In this document: piece by piece, positions 7,620 through 16,436 of the stretch
How positions within the stretch are numbered: position 1 is the first letter of the stretch
Layout: every line of letters starts with the position of its first letter
Assembly (NCBI RefSeq): GCF_003334815.1
Contig: NZ_QOWO01000052.1
Direction: 5' to 3' (one strand)
Origin: Escherichia coli
Lineage (GTDB): Bacteria; Pseudomonadota; Gammaproteobacteria; Enterobacterales; Enterobacteriaceae
DNA length: 22,598 bases
Made by a program: the position numbers and the translations under genes
Notes under the pieces: model-generated
The model's database searches: none
Seen by the model: the letters and a program-made list of their open reading frames with translations, nothing else
Told to the model about the DNA's origin: nothing

Positions 7620-7790
7620 TACTCCTGTGAGTTTTTGAGTTTACCATACTCTTTGTGTGAGTAAAGGTTAATATGAGTTTATGAGTTTATGAGTTTATGA
7701 GTTAAAGTGCATATACTCATTTGAGTTTTGTTGTGTATATGAGTATGTGAGTTTATGAGTGTGGGTGACGATGTCACATTTACTCATTAT
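7620..7790. promoter_or_regulatory. parH-like partition centromere/operator: array of degenerate GAGT/ACTC tetramers in AT-rich DNA
   Basis: Upstream of parF: ...gagtttttgagttta...actctttgtgtgagtaaa...atgagtttatgagtttatgagtttatgagtt...actcatttgagtttt...gagtatgtgagtttatgagtg...; TP228 parH is described as ACTC tetramers with AT-rich spacers. Confidence 0.7.
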
Positions 7791-7890: not shown

Positions 7891-8535
7891 ATGACTTCAA
7901 ATGCACCAACAAACTTTGTCCGCGCTTATCTGAGAGCTTCAACAGCAGAACAGGATGCTTCGCGTGCCCTGGAAACTATCGAGGCTTTTGCCAGGGAAAG
8001 AGGCCTGATCATTTGCAGCTATTATATTGAGAATGAATCCGGTTCCCGTCTTGACCGTCCAGAACTTTTTCGTCTTCTGAGAGATTGCCAGCAAAATGAC
8101 ATTTTGTTGATCGAGGATGTGGACAGACTTTCCCGCCTGTCAGGGGAAGACTGGAATACGCTGAAGAAAATGATCCGTCAGAAAGATATCCGGGTTATGG
8201 CCGTGAACGTTCCGACCACATGGATTAATTCTGGTATGAGTGAGTTTGATAGCCGGTTGTTTGCAGCCATTAACGATATGCTGCTGGATATGTTGGCCGC
8301 TGTTGCCAGAAGGGACTATGAACAACGGCGGGAACGCCAGAAACAGGGGATAGAGAAAGCAAGGAAAGACGGCAAATATAAAGGGCGCAAACCTAATCAA
8401 GCCAGACATGATGCAATTATCAGGTTGATAGAAAGCGGCAGTTCCTGGACACAGGTACAGAAGGTACTTGGATGCAGCCGTGGCACAATAAGCTGTGCGC
8501 TAAAACGTAAATCCCGGCAATCCACCTGTGAGTAG
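7891..8535 (+). CDS. Serine recombinase (resolvase/invertase family)
   Basis: 214-aa ORF divergent from parFG; N-terminal catalytic-domain pattern (VRAYLRASTAEQD, cf. Y.RVST..Q with a presumptive catalytic Ser) and a C-terminal HTH-like segment (WTQVQKVLGCSRGTISCALKR). Confidence 0.75.
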   Translation: MTSNAPTNFVRAYLRASTAEQDASRALETIEAFARERGLIICSYYIENESGSRLDRPELFRLLRDCQQNDILLIEDVDRLSRLSGEDWNTLKKMIRQKDIRVMAVNVPTTWINSGMSEFDSRLFAAINDMLLDMLAAVARRDYEQRRERQKQGIEKARKDGKYKGRKPNQARHDAIIRLIESGSSWTQVQKVLGCSRGTISCALKRKSRQSTCE

Positions 8536-8568
8536 GGCAGGGCGAAAAGGAAGCGATTATCCTGAATA

Positions 8569-8833
8569 AGGGGTTGTATGCCGGAAACGCCGAAATTTCC
8601 GATACAGAGAATTTGTTGATTTTTACAGCATGTTTGGCAAGTTTTGACGTGTACGTTTATTGTGCAATAAGTAAGAATTTGTCCGTACCAGCTATGTGAT
8701 ACGTTACGAGCAGTGATTTTTCGCTCTAAACAGCTATTTCTTTGCTGTCCGGTTAACAGCGGTCTTGCGTACAGGTTGCCGAGCGCAAAATTTATGCATT
8801 CCGGAAATTTTGGCTGTTGCGGCTTGGAACCCC
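8569..8833. repeat. Left arm of a 265-bp inverted repeat
   Basis: 8569-8833 is the reverse complement of 11522-11786 with only a few mismatches (e.g. ...gccggaaacgccgaaatttccgatacagagaatttgttgatttttacagcatgtttggcaag...). Confidence 0.9.
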
Positions 8834-9141
8834 CTTATACATTAAGATTGACGAAATTTATCCGAACATAAGCAAATGACGGAGTTCGCGTACCTCAAAG
8901 ATGAGTTAAAGTTATTGGACTTCGAGAAGGGATGATAAAGATTTGCGTTCTTTAGAAGCGAAAAACCCCAGCAGAGCCGGGGTCCTTCAATTCTTTTGCC
9001 GGATGTGCCTTCACTAGAACCCATGAAACATGGGGGATGATTCAACACTGGCTAACGTTATGTGATTACAATAGCGTAATATAGTCTGTACGTCAATGCG
9101 CATAGAAATCGAGACAGGGTAGTCCCTGAACAGGAGATTAA

Positions 9142-10086
9142 ATGCCTCAAAGAATCAATGATTACAAACCTGTACTTTCACTACTATCAACAGCAAGGCT
9201 TGCAAGCGTTCCAGCTATCTTTAACGTACACACCGATTTGGAAAAGTATGGATTTAGTCTGTGGATCCAGAACGCAGCTGCCTCACTCTATCCACTTGTG
9301 CAGCAACTTGAATTGGTTCTCAGGAATTCGGTTGATAAAGCAGCTCGTACAAGATTTGGTGAACGGTGGTGGGATACCATCTCGTATGATACGACGAAAG
9401 ACAATCACGATAAGTTCATCAATTGCATCAGAGATGCTGAACGGAGCTTATTAAAAAAATGGAAAGCCAAAGAGGTCGCTCGCCTTGGTTTAAGCCATCC
9501 ATCGCAAATAACAACGACGCCACCAGTTTTTTCACATGATGATATTATTGCAGCGACCACATTTTCCACATGGGAGAATGTTTTTCTTGAGGCGCTTCAT
9601 ACAGACGATAACGCTAAAAAAAATGATTTCCTTTGGCCTAACTCTCTTCCAAAAGCTCTGAGAAGGCTAAGTGTAATTGATAACAAACCCGTCGAGGCTC
9701 GTCGTAAGTTATTGAATCTACTCAAAGAGATAAGAGACTACCGCAATAGACTTTTTCATCATGACTGTATCTGGATAAAAATTAAAACTGTAGATAAACA
9801 GACTGCAATTGAATCAATTCGTGAAAAAATCAATCTAATCGAAAAGATCATAACAGCGATCAGTCCTGTAACTAACCGCGCTTTGACTGCGTGGGGTATG
9901 TATGAAAATGCCCGCAGAATCTGCTCCACTGCAGAACTATCCATTTATACAAATCTTAACTATCAGGTACCAAACATAGCTACGCCAGGGCTGCTTGGTC
10001 AATTAATGCTTCAGACAAATGGTGGAAAAGAAACGGTGCCTATGATGCTGCAAAATGAGGCCTGTGTTTTCTATAAATTAAGGTGA
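9142..10086 (+). CDS. Abortive-infection candidate, Abi_2 (AbiD/AbiF-like) family
   Basis: 314-aa ORF with a strong SD (aggag 7 bp upstream); contains IRDYRNRLFHHDCIW, matching the R-N-x-x-H-H pattern I recall for AbiD/AbiF-type proteins; sits in an IS-scarred cassette. Confidence 0.5.
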   Translation: MPQRINDYKPVLSLLSTARLASVPAIFNVHTDLEKYGFSLWIQNAAASLYPLVQQLELVLRNSVDKAARTRFGERWWDTISYDTTKDNHDKFINCIRDAERSLLKKWKAKEVARLGLSHPSQITTTPPVFSHDDIIAATTFSTWENVFLEALHTDDNAKKNDFLWPNSLPKALRRLSVIDNKPVEARRKLLNLLKEIRDYRNRLFHHDCIWIKIKTVDKQTAIESIREKINLIEKIITAISPVTNRALTAWGMYENARRICSTAELSIYTNLNYQVPNIATPGLLGQLMLQTNGGKETVPMMLQNEACVFYKLR

Positions 10087-10367
10087 AAGTACATAGCTTT
10101 AGCGGAAGCGAGACGCCGCATGTCAGCGGCTACTATCAAAACAGATGATCTCCCGCTACCCATATTTTCCTGGTTCTCCCTGTCTGGCCATCAGAGTAAA
10201 CTGGTGGGGCAGGGAGGCATCTCCTTCAGGAACGGCTATCCAGCCGCAGCTTTTCAGCAACTCATTGAGCGCTTCAGCCTGCCCGCTTATTCTGGCTGGC
10301 ACTGGTAGATGATATGACCTTTATATACTCACTATAGCATTGGTGGGATATTCCAGAGGAGGTCATC

Positions 10368-11337
10368 ATGCATTCGGAAAATATTGCGGCTTACGTCGGG
10401 CTGGATGTGCATAAAGAAACGTTGGCGGTTGCTATTGCTGTACCTGAACGGCTTGGCGAAGTTCGTTATTATGGTACGATTAACAGACAGAATCAAAAAT
10501 GATCATCGGGACGCAATTTCTCTCGCCAGGTTACTGCGGGCTGGAGAACTTACCCCTGTCTGGATCCCTGAGCTGACTCATGAAGCTATGCGGGATCTAA
10601 TCAGAGCCCGTGCAGCAGCTAAACGAGACAGCAGAGTTGCCCGACAGCGAATTCTGAGCATGCTATTGCGAACAGACAAACATTATGCTGGAAAGCACTG
10701 GACAGGAAAACACCGAACCTGGTTAGCTAATCAATCATTTAGTCAGCCATCTCAACAGATTGCTTTTCAACACTATTGTCAAAGTCTGGAGCAGATTGAA
10801 GATCGCATACTTCAACTCGACCAGGAAATATCTCGCCTGTTACCTGAGTGGTCTCTGTGCAATCTGGTCTGCCAGTTGCAGGCTCTTAAAGGTGTTGGTC
10901 AGCTAATCGCAATAACCCTGGTTGCTGAACTGGATGATTTTTCGCGATTTTCCAATCCCAAACAGCTCATGGCTTTTTTGGGACTGGTGCCAGGTGAATA
11001 TTCCAGTGGAAACAGTATTCGTCCCAGAGGAATAACAAAAGTTGGAAACAGCGAACTGAGTCGTCTGCTTTACGAAGCCGCCTGGTCTTATCGTACACCT
11101 GCAAAAGTTGGTGCATGGCTTATATATTACCGACCGGATTCTGTAACACAATATTCCAAAGATATTGCATGGAAAGCTCAACAACGATTGTGTTCTCGTT
11201 ACCGAAGTCTGACAGCAAAAGGGAAAAAATCACAAGTAGCCATTACGGCGGTGGCTCGTGAGTTGACTGGATTTATGTGGGATATTGCACTTGCTGCCCA
11301 TCATCATTCAGTCAGCAGAAGCAAAATTAAACCCTGA
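10368..11337 (+). pseudogene. IS110-family transposase remnant (frameshift plus internal deletion)
   Basis: ATG at 10368 (SD aggagg) gives MHSENIAAYVGLDVHKETLAVAIAVPERLGEVRYYGTINRQNQK then a stop; the rest (NDHRDAISLARLLRAGEL...KGVGQLIAITLVAELDDFSRFSNPKQLMAFLGLVPGEYSSGNSIR...) continues in another frame; most of the N-terminal catalytic domain between the VGLDV and NDxxDA motifs is missing. Confidence 0.7.
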
Positions 11338-11521
11338 ATTTGTTTCCCTTCTTCATTGAAGGCGATGTCCAGAGCGCTTTTCAGAAGACAGATGCTGTTT
11401 ACTGATGCCGAGGTCTGGATTCGGTGCCGGCCAGTCCAGTCTCTGTTGCTAAGGGCCTGATAGACCCAGGCATGACCCATCAGGAGTTCCATGGCGTAGG
11501 TCAGCCGGAACATATCATTTT

Positions 11522-11786
11522 GGGGTTCCAAGCCGCAACCGCCGAAATTTCCGGAATGCATAAATTTTGCGCTCGGCAACCTGTACGCAAGACCGCTGTT
11601 AACCGGACAGCAAAGAAATAGCTGTTTAGAGCGAAAAATCACTGCTCGTAACGTATCACATAGCTGGTACGGACAAATTCTTACTTATTGCACAATAAAC
11701 GTACACGTCAAAACTTGCCAAACATGCTGTAAAAATCAACAAATTCTCTGTATCGGAAATTTCGGCGTTTCCGGCGTACAACCCCT
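11522..11786. repeat. Right arm of the 265-bp inverted repeat
   Basis: Reverse complement of 8569-8833. Confidence 0.9.
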
Positions 11787-12765: not shown

Positions 12766-13077
12766 ATGGATGGTGTGGTTTCTGATTATAAATTTTTTCT
12801 AGAGGAATCTCATTGTTCGCGAATTAGGCGAGGAGTGATAAAACCCGGGATATTGACTGATGAGCAATATGAATTGCTTATTGAGTTATCTCCTGTTTAT
12901 AGCTGTAAAATAATATATGCAATGAGAGATTATCTGGTGGCGGGGCATCCGAGAAAAACTGTATGTGAAAGGCACAATGTGAGTAATGGATATCTTAGTA
13001 CCAGTTTAAAGAAACTCTACTATACGAACAGTGTAGTAATTAGATTGATGCAAATTTACAAAAGTAATCATCAATAA
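12766..13077 (+). CDS. PapB/AfaA-family fimbrial operon transcriptional regulator
   Basis: 103-aa ORF; IIYAMRDYLVAGHPRKTVCERHNVSNGYLSTSLKKL matches the PapB-family core (DYLV.G..RK.VCE....NGYFST.L..L) from memory; first gene of the chaperone-usher cluster; ggag SD. Confidence 0.75.
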   Translation: MDGVVSDYKFFLEESHCSRIRRGVIKPGILTDEQYELLIELSPVYSCKIIYAMRDYLVAGHPRKTVCERHNVSNGYLSTSLKKLYYTNSVVIRLMQIYKSNHQ

Positions 13078-13147
13078 TAACACAATTAATTGATTGCAGA
13101 TTATAAAAATCAGCCAAAGAACATTCAGATCTGGCTTCGGGGGGGGT

Positions 13148-13891
13148 ATGCTTAAAAAAATAATTTTAATTATAACAGCGACATTTTCAGTTATATCTCA
13201 TGCAACACAAATAGAAACAACCACAAGAAGTTTTAGCAGTTTTCTTGGTACAACGAGGATTGTTTTCGACTCAGACACTGACAGTTATAACTTGCCTGTT
13301 GATAACAGGCTGGATTATCCCGTTCTGGTCGAAACAAAGATAATGGATGAGAATTCTGAAAAAACATCATCAAAATATATTGCCACACCACCTTTGTTTC
13401 GTCTGGATGGCGGGCAGAAAAACACAGTTTCGATAATTAAAGTTAGTGATGATTTTGCCAAAGATGTGGAAAGTATGAACTGGGTATGTGTCAAAAACAT
13501 CCCGCCGTCTGACGGTAGCGCCTGGACGGATAATGAGTTAAATAATAAAAACAGTGTACTAAACGTCAACATCATGGTTAATAACTGCATCAAGTTAATA
13601 ATGAGACCTGCCTCATTAGAAAACATAAAAGATGCAAGTTATGGTGATAAATTAAAATGGAGCATTGACAGCGGAAAACTTACCGTTGAAAACCCAACAC
13701 CGTATTACATTAATTTTAGTGAAATCAAACTTAACGGTAAAAATATTACACCCCCAGTGTTTGTTAAACCAAAGAGTTCTTATGCTTTTGAAGATCTAAA
13801 GCAAGCTAAACAGACTGGGAATATCACCTGGCAATTACTAAATGATTTTGGTGCTAAAACTCGTGAATTTAAATCTACCGTAAGCCAATGA
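13148..13891 (+). CDS. PapD-like periplasmic pilus chaperone
   Basis: Start placed at MLKKIILIITATFSVISHA (signal peptide; G-rich SD upstream) rather than the ORF-track Met at 13094; PPLFRLDGGQKNTVSII matches the chaperone PPLFRL motif. Confidence 0.75.
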   Translation: MLKKIILIITATFSVISHATQIETTTRSFSSFLGTTRIVFDSDTDSYNLPVDNRLDYPVLVETKIMDENSEKTSSKYIATPPLFRLDGGQKNTVSIIKVSDDFAKDVESMNWVCVKNIPPSDGSAWTDNELNNKNSVLNVNIMVNNCIKLIMRPASLENIKDASYGDKLKWSIDSGKLTVENPTPYYINFSEIKLNGKNITPPVFVKPKSSYAFEDLKQAKQTGNITWQLLNDFGAKTREFKSTVSQ

Positions 13892-13910
13892 TAACAGAGA
13901 AAAGCTAATA

Positions 13911-16367
13911 ATGAAGACAAAAATAAACCCTATAGCCTATATGCTTATTGTGGCAGGCTTTTCTTATAACAATGATTTATTAGCAAAAAAAAGTGATTAT
14001 ATCTTTGATTCGGCATACGTTAATGGTAGTGACGTAACTCGCTTTAATGATGGCCAGCAATTACCTGGTAAATATCTGGTTACAGTCTCTGTTAATGAGC
14101 AGAGAAAAAAAGTTGGCAGTTACAAAGTTAACTTTGAGTACAGAGGAGAAACTCTCACCCCTGTACTCAACAAAGAAAAGCTGGCACTTTTTGGCATCAA
14201 TCCTGACAAGCTAAAGTTAACTTTATCCGGGGATGGAAATGAAATAGACTTTGACAGAAGTGATGTAAAGTTCAATTTTTCCTTTTATGGGATGAATTTG
14301 ACCCTTTATGTTCCTTCAAAGGCATTAGTGAATAAAACAAGTGAACTTGCTCATGAGTCTCAATGGGATGATGGAATTAATGCCTTCATACTCAACTATG
14401 ATGCTAAAGCCTGGCACAGGGATGTGAATTATGATTCACCTGATAATGAATCATATTATTTATCGTTAAATCCTGGTATGAATGTTGGCAGCTGGAGAGT
14501 ACGACACTCGGGCATATGGCGGAAAGGTTACGATAGAGAAAGTTCGTATCAGAAATCTTACACATATGCTGAAAGGGATATCCGGGCTTTAAAAAGCAAA
14601 ATACTTATTGGAGAAAGCAGTACTGGCTCAGATATATTCGGAAGCGTTCCCTTTAATGGCGTTAAACTGGCATCATCAGATGATATGGTTCCGTACTATG
14701 ACAGAGCGTTTGTGCCAGCGATCAGAGGCATCGCCAATAGCGTAGCGCAAGTGGAAGTGCGTCAGAACGGCTATCTGATTTACAGTACGGAAGTTCCCGC
14801 TGGCACTTTTGAACTGACGGATGTGCCAGCAGCACAGGGAGAAACGCTGGATGTAACAGTAAGAGAGGACAACGGAGCAGAGCAGCACTTCAGCGTCCCC
14901 TACAATACTCCTGCGATCTCTTTGAGAGAGGGCAGACTGAAGTACGAATTAACAGCCGGGACATACAGGCCATACTCTCGTTCGGCTAAAGATGACAGTT
15001 TTGGCCAGGCAACATTAATTTACGGCTTTAATGATACTCTTACTGGTTATACCGGATTACAGATCAGTGAGAAATATCAATCAGGTGCTGCAGGCCTTGG
15101 CTTTAATTTATATGACTACGGCGCGGCTTCAGTAGATGGCATTTATTCAAAAAATCGATATTCAGAAAACAAGACCGGAAGTGCATTCAGAGTAAGATAT
15201 AACAAGTTAATAGATACAACGAATACCTCTTTTGCTCTGGCAAGTTATCAATATGCGTCCAGGAGTTATAGTACGTTTGATGATGCTATGGAACCAGGCC
15301 AGAGTTATTCTTTCGGCAAGAGAAAAAATGACTTTAGCATCAGTATAAGACAGGAATTGTCTGATTATGGGAATCTTAACCTGTCCTATAGCAAGACTAC
15401 TTTTTGGGATAAGAAAAATGAATCTTATGCAAACCTGAACTATGACTCTTCATTATTTGGCTATGTTAGTTTTTCTCTTGGATGGAGCCGGGTACTGGAA
15501 TCTTACAGAAATACAAGAGCAAGAGAGGATATATATTCTGCCACATTCTCAATACCTTTGAGCAGGTTTACAGGCAGGAAATTAAATGCAAATATGCGGT
15601 ATCAGATAATTAATGAACGGGATAACAGTGTCAGCAATTCACTGAGTTTAAACGGAAATGCTTACGAAAACAGATTATCATGGAACGTAAGCCAGGGCAC
15701 TAACAGCAGGAATCATAACAATAACAGGACATCAGCCAATGCTTCGTTTAAACATTCGTTTGGTACCGTAAATGGAATGTATAACTACAGTCCTGTTTCT
15801 ACCCAGTTCGGCGGAGGGATGAATGGAAGTGTGATATTGCATGAGCATGGATTGACTTTTGGACAACCTGTTTATGACTCAGCTGCTCTGGTAGATACTA
15901 ACGGTGAATCAGGTATTAAAATCACCAACAAATCCGGTGTACAGACAGATAATAATGGATACGCTGTAGTAACGCCTCTGAATACTTACAGGATGAATGA
16001 CATTAGTATAAAACAAGCCAGGTTACAGAGTAAGTCTGACTTTAAACAGACAGTAACTTCTGTAGTACCAACAAGCAAAGCTCTTGTTTATGCAGGTTTC
16101 AAATCTGTAACAGGTGAAAAAGGGTTATTTAAACTTAAGGACAAAAATGACAAACCACTCCCCTTTGGAGCGATGGTATCTGTAATTGATCAGGATAACG
16201 CAGGCGTAATTGGTGATGAAGGTCAGGTATATTTAAGTGGTTTAAAGGAAAGTGGTGTTATTAAGGTGCGCTGGGGTAGTGGTATTAATCAGACATGCAG
16301 TATTCCATATGCACTTGGAAATAAAAATTCGGCGGGACTATATGTCTCCACCTTTAGATGCCAGTAG
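13911..16367 (+). CDS. Outer-membrane fimbrial usher
   Basis: 818-aa ORF; FNDGQQLPGKYLVTV and LASSDDMVPYYDRAFVPAIRGIANSVAQVEVRQNGYLIY match FimD-type usher segments ([51 protein letters not shown]) from memory. Confidence 0.85.
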   Translation: MKTKINPIAYMLIVAGFSYNNDLLAKKSDYIFDSAYVNGSDVTRFNDGQQLPGKYLVTVSVNEQRKKVGSYKVNFEYRGETLTPVLNKEKLALFGINPDKLKLTLSGDGNEIDFDRSDVKFNFSFYGMNLTLYVPSKALVNKTSELAHESQWDDGINAFILNYDAKAWHRDVNYDSPDNESYYLSLNPGMNVGSWRVRHSGIWRKGYDRESSYQKSYTYAERDIRALKSKILIGESSTGSDIFGSVPFNGVKLASSDDMVPYYDRAFVPAIRGIANSVAQVEVRQNGYLIYSTEVPAGTFELTDVPAAQGETLDVTVREDNGAEQHFSVPYNTPAISLREGRLKYELTAGTYRPYSRSAKDDSFGQATLIYGFNDTLTGYTGLQISEKYQSGAAGLGFNLYDYGAASVDGIYSKNRYSENKTGSAFRVRYNKLIDTTNTSFALASYQYASRSYSTFDDAMEPGQSYSFGKRKNDFSISIRQELSDYGNLNLSYSKTTFWDKKNESYANLNYDSSLFGYVSFSLGWSRVLESYRNTRAREDIYSATFSIPLSRFTGRKLNANMRYQIINERDNSVSNSLSLNGNAYENRLSWNVSQGTNSRNHNNNRTSANASFKHSFGTVNGMYNYSPVSTQFGGGMNGSVILHEHGLTFGQPVYDSAALVDTNGESGIKITNKSGVQTDNNGYAVVTPLNTYRMNDISIKQARLQSKSDFKQTVTSVVPTSKALVYAGFKSVTGEKGLFKLKDKNDKPLPFGAMVSVIDQDNAGVIGDEGQVYLSGLKESGVIKVRWGSGINQTCSIPYALGNKNSAGLYVSTFRCQ

Positions 16368-16436
16368 TTTCTGTTTGCTTTAATCCCGGGTAAACAGAAT
16401 AGCCAATTGGGATGATCAACTAAACATGAGGTTAAA

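Follow-up and report, generated by a model that had tools for sequence, protein, structure and literature searches.

A conserved small RNA (sRNA) gene lies divergently upstream of the phage-defence gene PD-T4-5 on a plasmid segment of Escherichia coli, and our analysis suggests that the two form a single system. The stretch analysed here (the window; contig NZ_QOWO01000052.1 of assembly GCF_003334815.1) is 22,598 nucleotides long, and in it the PD-T4-5 gene, hereafter abi, occupies 9142..10086 on the plus strand and encodes a 314-residue AbiF-fold HEPN protein (RefSeq WP_001376111.1, 'Abi family protein'), while the predicted structured sRNA of about 105 nt occupies 8956..9061 on the minus strand. 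The sRNA gene has a defined strand and structure, is strictly linked to abi and is contained in the clone with which the defence phenotype was established, and it is quite likely to be a real gene that is functionally coupled to abi. We read PD-T4-5 and its divergent sRNA as a HEPN toxin with an RNA antitoxin rather than as a single-gene system, with a probability of roughly 0.6, and we hold it equally likely that the sRNA acts as an antitoxin in some way. The RefSeq annotation carries nothing at the position of the sRNA, and a full-text literature search retrieved no paper containing its core sequence. Rfam returned no family at gathering score in the window and none at E<=10 between 8500 and 10400, the abiF motif included, and on 20 distant loci it reported only a tRNA.

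The sRNA gene of the window (covariance model R1 match at 8950-9067 on the minus strand, 128 bits) has all the parts of an autonomous transcription unit. A promoter scan placed a -35 box TTGACG at 9096-9091 and, after a 17-nt spacer, a -10 box TATTGT at 9073-9068, both on the minus strand, and the position of the promoter and of the terminator suggests a transcript start at about 9061 and a 3' end at about 8956-8961. The 3' part is a terminal hairpin, GAAGGACCCCGGC-UCU-GCUGGGGUUUUU, with a U-rich tail (8961..8988, minus strand), which we interpret as an intrinsic terminator and which is supported by covariation: the helix has 12 pairs, 11 of them with compensatory changes, 98% of its cells are paired, and most loci have a run of U's after the stem. 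Between the terminator and the start lie the single-stranded motif GGCAAA(A)G (8993..9000, minus strand), present in all 22 sequences as GGCAAA except for GACAAA in two, and the core of the RNA, which consists of hairpin 2 and the invariant GUUCUAGU (sense strand UCCCCCAUGUUUCAUGGGUUCUAGU; 9013..9037, minus strand; invariant columns in alignments A2 and A4). The unpaired motifs UCCCC, GUUCUAGU and GGCAAAG are invariant, and the copy in the window has a minimum free energy of -40.5 kcal/mol (z=-3.9). The same minus-strand layout recurs at every locus, namely TTGAC(G/A/C/T), an unconserved spacer of 17-18 nt, TAnnnT, the conserved block, a GC-rich hairpin and a run of U's, with the strict promoter pattern in 17 of the 22 loci and near variants in the remainder. 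A small peptide was also considered as the product of this region; its sole ATG-led frame (MFHGF, then stop) is unconserved.

Alignment of the sequences upstream of homologous genes, whose proteins share 41-94% identity, gave an alignable block of ~110 nt with invariant runs and compensatory hairpins. The R1 model, built from eight sequences, recovered the element in 22 of 22 clade loci, 13 of which had not been used in building it (including those of Acinetobacter and Alysiella, with proteins of 34-39% identity), and also in Aliivibrio pVSAL840, bringing the linkage to 23 of 23. These loci lie in unrelated genomic surroundings in Enterobacterales, Vibrionales, Alteromonadales-type contigs, Acinetobacter and Neisseriaceae, and in all of them the sRNA lies on the strand opposite to abi, its 5' end being 36-95 nt from the ATG. 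The sRNA is better conserved than the coding sequence it accompanies (for example 92% vs 71% and 88% vs 60% nucleotide identity), with the flanks at the alignment baseline, and homology with a Serratia plasmid starts exactly at the sRNA terminator. In the combined alignment, which was fitted to the covariance model and thus leans toward its structure, standard pairs fill 97.1% of cells compared with 27-55% when the partners are slid by 1-3 columns, and double-sided changes occur at 19 of the 22 pairs; not one of 500 shuffles matched any covariation measure, a statistic that overstates significance because the sequences are phylogenetically related. As the combined alignment is model-fitted, the pairing was derived again from a plain MAFFT alignment, which agrees with it, giving 17 pairs (12 compensatory; -16.0 kcal/mol) on the minus strand as against 10 pairs (-10.0 kcal/mol) on the plus strand, where the long-range helix is lost. 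The paired positions hold 46 G.U but only 7 A.C combinations, which fixes the strand of the RNA as minus. A leader or riboswitch on the plus strand is ruled out by this asymmetry, the weaker plus-strand fold, the minus-strand promoter and the U-run, as well as by the GNRA loops of a sister family, which make sense on the minus strand only.

That sister family belongs to more distant relatives of the protein. The R1 model found no match at the beta-proteobacterial homologues (27-31% protein identity), and these, together with Rhizobium homologues, have a different, nearly invariant sRNA of ~95 nt (R2) divergently upstream of the gene at 17 loci (L013-L027, L029 and L044, at about 2800-2935 on the minus strand of each locus). 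R2 is laid out as TTGACn, 17 nt, TA(G/C/A)A(A/C)T, with CCCCGGCC...GGCCGGGG and U's behind it as terminator, and its hairpin is capped by GCAA, GAAA or GCGA, a GNRA loop every time. The Legionella clade has a third conserved divergent RNA in the same layout (L031-L039, ~150 nt upstream of each abi homologue), with TTGACA, 18 nt, CATAAT, a GC-GAAA-GC hairpin and a terminator AACCACC...GGTGGTT followed by U's. Since the sister clades keep the layout with other RNAs, a divergent sRNA is a property of the whole branch, the RNA itself having been replaced between clades.

The gene in the window is almost certainly PD-T4-5, as judged from sequence. PD-T4-5 came from a functional selection in E. coli ECOR34 (RCQ99930.1), and the ECOR34 clone, under its native promoter in a low-copy vector, protected MG1655 against T4 through abortive infection (Vassallo et al., 2022, Nat Microbiol, PMC9519451). 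According to Table S2 of that paper the open reading frame (ORF) measures 945 nt and the cloned region 1175 bp, and Table S8 gives the cloning primers PD-T4-5-F and PD-T4-5-R (PMC9519451). The genomic part of the forward primer (GCGAAAAACCCCAGCAGAG) is identical to window positions 8958-8976 and that of the reverse primer (AGCCGCTGACATGCGGC) to the reverse complement of 10115-10131, so that the validated clone (pCV6) corresponds to 8958..10132 on the plus strand and contains both the sRNA gene and abi. The window amplicon is 1175 bp, the same as in ECOR34 (QOXT01000046, 4511-5685), the two ORFs are of equal length (945 nt) and no difference emerges for the gene, an equation that is founded on the primer and amplicon match and not on a base-by-base alignment of the interior; the ECOR34 gene is likewise plasmid-borne. 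The forward primer starts at 8958, the foot of the terminator, so the published 'single-gene' clone held the complete sRNA gene, which went unremarked in the cloned fragment of what was described as a single-gene system. PADLOC likewise returned a full-length PD-T4-5 match (PDLC04038; 435 bits, E=3.1e-131; residues 1-313 aligned with positions 1-308 of the 309 in the profile). The preliminary description of this DNA had proposed an AbiF-type anti-phage gene with a strong ribosome-binding site, and its reading is borne out: the ATG-led frame at 9142-10086 on the plus strand encodes 314 residues, a Shine-Dalgarno sequence AGGAG (9132..9136, plus strand, read directly from the sequence) stands 5 nt ahead of the ATG, and the gene is a catalogued E. 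coli Abi gene with a validated clone. The gene itself is therefore already known and validated, and as a 'candidate' it is ordinary.

The protein sits at the edge of Abi_2 and is a HEPN protein with the AbiF fold. Its own match to Abi_2 (PF07751), the profile check proposed in the preliminary description, is marginal (hmmscan against Pfam, i-Evalue 0.04, 14.6 bits, residues 49-211) and by itself comes close to the missing domain match named there as refuting, but among its 43 homologues 10 match at E<=1e-3 (best 5.2e-7) and 28 at E<=0.1, and the published HHpred table lists Abi_2 at 99.8% probability (E=2.8e-25), followed by HEPN_SAV2148 and HEPN_Swt1; together with the invariant motifs these uphold the assignment. 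The peptide IRDYRNRLFHHDCIW, on which the family had been proposed, is indeed found at residues 197-211, but the spacing of its motif is R-N-x-x-x-H-H (R201-N202-x3-H206-H207) and not R-N-x-x-H-H as then written. This HEPN catalytic motif, R201-N202-R203-L-F-H206-H207 (Rx4H; 9742..9762, plus strand), is conserved in the 43 homologues, R201, N202, R203 and H206 being invariant down to 24% identity. A second motif, E57-x3-R61-N62-x2-D65 (9310..9336, plus strand), lies in the long N-terminal helix (32-72 of the structure model), and its residues E57, R61, N62 and D65 never vary in alignment A1, again down to 24% identity. Searches of the protein against NCBIfam gave nothing meaningful, PHROGs gave only phrog_26181 (function not known; E=1.9e-5), and a profile search against PDB sequences gave only spurious DARPin matches, for which reason structure comparison was needed; this found an AbiF-like three-dimensional arrangement, and we consider the AbiF-like HEPN fold very probable. 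The label 'CAAX protease' on some homologues was rejected, as it has no support from the fold or from any profile. Many family entries carry the same name, a mistake of annotation propagated in the NCBI records. At the Rosenbergiella collisarenosi locus (L006, 3001-3941) the abi homologue (94% identity) is broken, its ORF stopping after 172 residues and the length of the match not being a multiple of three; the neighbouring sRNA gene is intact there (127 bits).

Copies of the most conserved part of the sRNA also occur in phages. Two of them, Enterobacter phage EC152 and Pectobacterium phage POP15, match this part (sense CUUCCCCCAUGUUUCAUGGGUUCUAGU) exactly over 25-28 nt, the initial BLAST E-value having been only 3e-3 per match. 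In both phages the copy reads in the same sense as the tRNA genes of the cluster in which it lies, in a gap without annotation (EC152 element, PP681140.1 67739-67828, equivalent to L082 1467-1556, minus strand; POP15 core, L083 1494-1536, minus strand; further phage loci are L086-L091). The closing helix around the core differs between them, being GCAGAUACG...CGUAUCUGC in EC152 and UACGG...CCGUA in POP15. Of the 39 matching Vequintavirinae records, 38 (from phages of Klebsiella, Erwinia, Salmonella, Proteus, Raoultella and Enterobacter) share a conserved element of ~90 nt between tRNA-His and tRNA-Ser(gga); POP15 has the core only, in another gap of the tRNA cluster. Alignment of the phage elements shows compensatory changes and retention of the motif UUCCC(C/A)-loop-(G/U)GGUUCUA(G/C)U, and individual phage variants parallel individual bacterial sRNAs (CCCAC...GUGUGUUCUAG of KB57 and locus L066; UUCCCC-UUAAC-UGGUUCUA of Erwinia phage pEa55 and locus L011). 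Rfam recognised no family in the phage element. By analogy with the pseudo-ToxI of PhiTE, the element may be a decoy of the antitoxin.

We propose that the HEPN protein would be an RNase toxin acting through the invariant R201-x4-H206, and that the ~105-nt sRNA would be transcribed divergently from its near-consensus sigma-70 promoter, which lies 45-70 nt upstream of the ATG of abi. In the uninfected cell the sRNA would hold the toxin silent, most likely by binding the protein directly as in the type III logic of AbiFr and AbiF, and a strong sRNA promoter overlapping a weak abi promoter could keep the RNA in excess over the protein. Once T4 infects, the sRNA would run low because host transcription is shut off or the RNA decays, and the freed enzyme would cleave RNA and abort the infection. 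Activation through depletion of a labile RNA is modelled on ToxIN, for which Guegler and Laub reportedly provided the basis in 2021, namely activation by loss of the labile RNA after phage transcription shut-off.

The known systems closest to the proposed one include AbiF, a toxin-antitoxin (TA) system of type III in which an upstream non-coding RNA (ncRNA) on the same strand is co-transcribed with the toxin gene and blocks the HEPN site (PMC13064643, PMC12737573, PMC12373285). The AbiF/AbiFr group (PbAbiF, PDB 8vz6; C. difficile AbiF-RCd22; lactococcal AbiD, AbiD1 and AbiF; Pfam Abi_2 PF07751) shares about 10% sequence identity with the PD-T4-5 protein, and it resembles PD-T4-5 in that genetic linkage ties the toxin gene to a structured, conserved ncRNA, here at 23 of 23 loci. 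As the canonical AbiF ncRNAs are co-directional and co-transcribed, the analogy is one of logic and not of homology, and PD-T4-5 would in this reading be an RNA-protein TA defence of the AbiF type whose RNA is re-oriented and non-homologous. The PD-T4-5 sRNA also has no tandem motif copies. Fineran in 2009 and Blower in 2012 are said to have described the ToxIN and AbiQ type III TA systems and the escape of phage PhiTE by pseudo-ToxI. PD-T4-5 would share with these an endoRNase toxin checked by an adjacent small RNA and does share a plasmid-borne Abi defence, and as with ToxIN, whose phages carry a partial copy of the antitoxin RNA, a candidate decoy exists here in the Vequintavirinae tRNA-cluster element. 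ToxN, however, is not a HEPN protein and ToxI is an upstream array of tandem 36-nt repeats on the same strand; no direct-repeat family was found in 8950-9140, and the PD-T4-5 RNA is single-copy, structured and encoded on the other strand. Type I TA systems of the hok/sok type are similar in that a small RNA with its own strong promoter opposes the toxin gene with a possible 5' overlap, but the toxin candidate of PD-T4-5 is a 314-residue soluble helical HEPN protein and not a small membrane peptide.

The strongest competitor of an RNA antitoxin, though a good deal less probable, is that the sRNA regulates the expression of abi, either as a cis-antisense RNA to an overlapping abi 5' untranslated region, as in type I systems, or through promoter competition. 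The vector of the published clone, pCV1, is without promoter (Vassallo et al., 2022, PMC9519451), and because the insert starts at 8958, abi has to be transcribed from a promoter somewhere in 8958-9141 that overlaps the sRNA gene or the sRNA promoter. At some loci the 5' end of the sRNA comes as close as 36-53 nt to the ATG, so that overlap is forced, and three marine loci have a plus-strand extended -10 (TGnTATAGT) directly over the sRNA -35 box. Cis-antisense pairing would arise automatically, and would leave unexplained why GUUCUAGU, GGCAAAG and UCCCC are invariant and unpaired among systems whose proteins share 35-94% identity and why the fold is upheld by compensatory changes. No conserved complementarity was found between the sRNA and the ribosome-binding and translation-initiation region of abi, and trans-antisense pairing with the ribosome-binding site was rejected since duplex energies were the same as for shuffled and non-cognate controls and the predicted sites were inconsistent. 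The favoured mode of an RNA antitoxin is instead direct binding to the protein, because the closest structural relative of the protein is inhibited in this way, because invariant single-stranded motifs in a compensated fold fit a protein-RNA interface, and because cis-antisense pairing would not constrain the sequence so; we hold this mode only tentatively, and with less confidence than the antitoxin role as such.

Several points weigh against an RNA antitoxin, or at least against one that acts by binding. We infer the expression of the sRNA, the neutralisation of the protein and its mode, the RNase activity and the trigger. No conserved plus-strand sigma-70 promoter for abi was found, which speaks against a regulatory role but also leaves room for antisense or transcriptional interference. 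The RNA of PD-T4-5 lies on the opposite strand under its own promoter where the AbiF ncRNAs are co-directional and co-transcribed, it is without the Rfam abiF motif RF03085, and the model-fitted alignment and the relatedness of the sequences, described above, soften the covariation statistics. PD-T4-5 was moreover handled as a single gene, with no point mutants or toxicity tests reported (PMC9519451). This last point, along with the PADLOC entry for a single gene and the fact that the RNA has been implicated by no experiment, would fit a protein that truly works alone, the upstream block only accompanying it as regulatory DNA or as an sRNA unrelated to it. We regard this as improbable, given the strict linkage at 23 of 23 loci in several orders and unrelated contexts, the onset of Serratia plasmid homology exactly at the sRNA terminator, the two sister clades with the same architecture and different RNAs, and the compensatory changes, G.U asymmetry and GNRA loops, which are features of an RNA and not of DNA. 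Least probable of all is a positive cofactor: the sRNA would not inhibit the protein but serve it as a sensor or guide-like RNA, needed to recognise a target or to become active. AbiF-family proteins have been proposed as ancestors of Cas13 (AbiF to Cas13e to Cas13), with the bound RNA becoming the guide, and the sRNA does have conserved single-stranded segments; these are invariant, however, the opposite of the variability expected of a guide, and phage copies of the core would then hurt the phage rather than help it.

If the sRNA is an antitoxin, a wider reading becomes conceivable, albeit a speculative one that we think somewhat more apt to fail than to hold: the PD-T4-5 branch would be a distinct class of RNA-protein TA systems with divergent antitoxins of ~100 nt and with decoys in Vequintavirinae. 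It would comprise at least three unrelated sRNA families in three protein clades, with their own promoters and none of them in Rfam. The decoy would be the toxin-binding 5' domain, UUCCCC-loop-GGGUUCUAGU, expressed within tRNA gene clusters, and this motif would mark the inhibitory determinant and possibly mimic the natural RNA substrate of the toxin.

The gene is rare among finished genomes. The identical protein WP_001376111.1 is recorded in 343 contigs and in 3 of 5426 complete E. coli genomes, plasmid-borne each time, and the gene was found in at least four backgrounds, namely IncX1-fimbrial, IncI/K and StbA/ParM plasmids and chromosomes beside IS66. Representatives of all four backgrounds also have the IS110-family gene that accompanies abi in the window, either whole or in remnant form, though it is not called everywhere. 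In the window, the sRNA, abi and the IS110-family gene form a cassette bracketed by two inverted copies of a repeat resembling a miniature inverted-repeat transposable element (MITE). The left copy (8570..8833, plus strand) is 264 bp long with 32-nt terminal inverted repeats (GGGGTTGTATGCCGG...), and the second, inverted copy (11522..11785, minus strand) closes the cassette. Between these arms lie abi, a short DUF2913-related remnant and the IS110-family transposase (10368..11337, plus strand; identified from its ORFs, the RefSeq label and the domains DEDD_Tnp_IS110 and Transposase_20). The 'IS-scarred' and inverted-repeat-bounded cassette of the preliminary description is thus present as claimed, with a frameshifted transposase at about 10368-11337 and arms at 8569-8833 and 11522-11786 of 265 nt and 99% complementarity. 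The 264-bp unit has unannotated copies in 182 plasmid records, mostly of E. coli. A composite transposon formed from the two copies was rejected, as there is no 5-bp target duplication around the pair (AATAA vs TATCT) or around each copy. The ends of the unit start GGGGTTGTA, beginning with GGGG in the style of the Tn3 family. IncI/K plasmids have the left copy only and are homologous to the window from 8568 to 11463. In the transposase, the N-terminal DEDD segment (10368-10502) is in a different frame, and this pseudogene is shared by IncX1, IncI/K and other replicons. Directly 3' of abi, 10174-10300 has 92-94% identity to part of DUF2913-family genes of Enterobacter and Klebsiella plasmids, and this remnant is overlapped by a 62-residue ORF (10120-10308) called in many assemblies.

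Taken whole, the window is part of an IncX1-type plasmid and has two replication-initiator genes, ParA/ParG and a resolvase, and its cargo at 12766-21370 comprises a PapB-like regulator, a PapD chaperone, an 818-residue PapC usher and a 1370-residue S6-family (SPATE) autotransporter peptidase. With a Pap-type fimbrial operon and a SPATE peptidase on an IncX1-type backbone, the earlier designation as a virulence plasmid is fair. The closest relative is pISHS7_3 (83% coverage, 97.8% identity), and in the closest plasmid an IS3 element is located immediately upstream of the S6-family peptidase gene. At 7628-7768, between the divergent parA (6971-7618, minus strand) and resolvase (7891-8535, plus strand) genes, there is an array of about 9 or more copies of an 8-bp direct repeat (TGAGTTTA and variants), and the ParA/ParG system probably has its partition site or operator in this array.

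What is new here is the conserved, unannotated divergent sRNA, the generality of this architecture in the branch and the phage-borne copies of the RNA core. If the sRNA is an antitoxin, a mechanism and a second component would be added to what DefenseFinder and PADLOC list as a single-gene system, and annotation pipelines that consider only proteins would need correcting. The history leading from AbiF to Cas13 would then include a line whose RNA partner was exchanged and turned round on several occasions, a line that would bear on how HEPN nucleases recruit RNA partners, and the phage copies of the core, hidden in tRNA arrays in which no one annotates genes, would, if they act as decoys, be a second natural case of RNA-based anti-defence mimicry after pseudo-ToxI.

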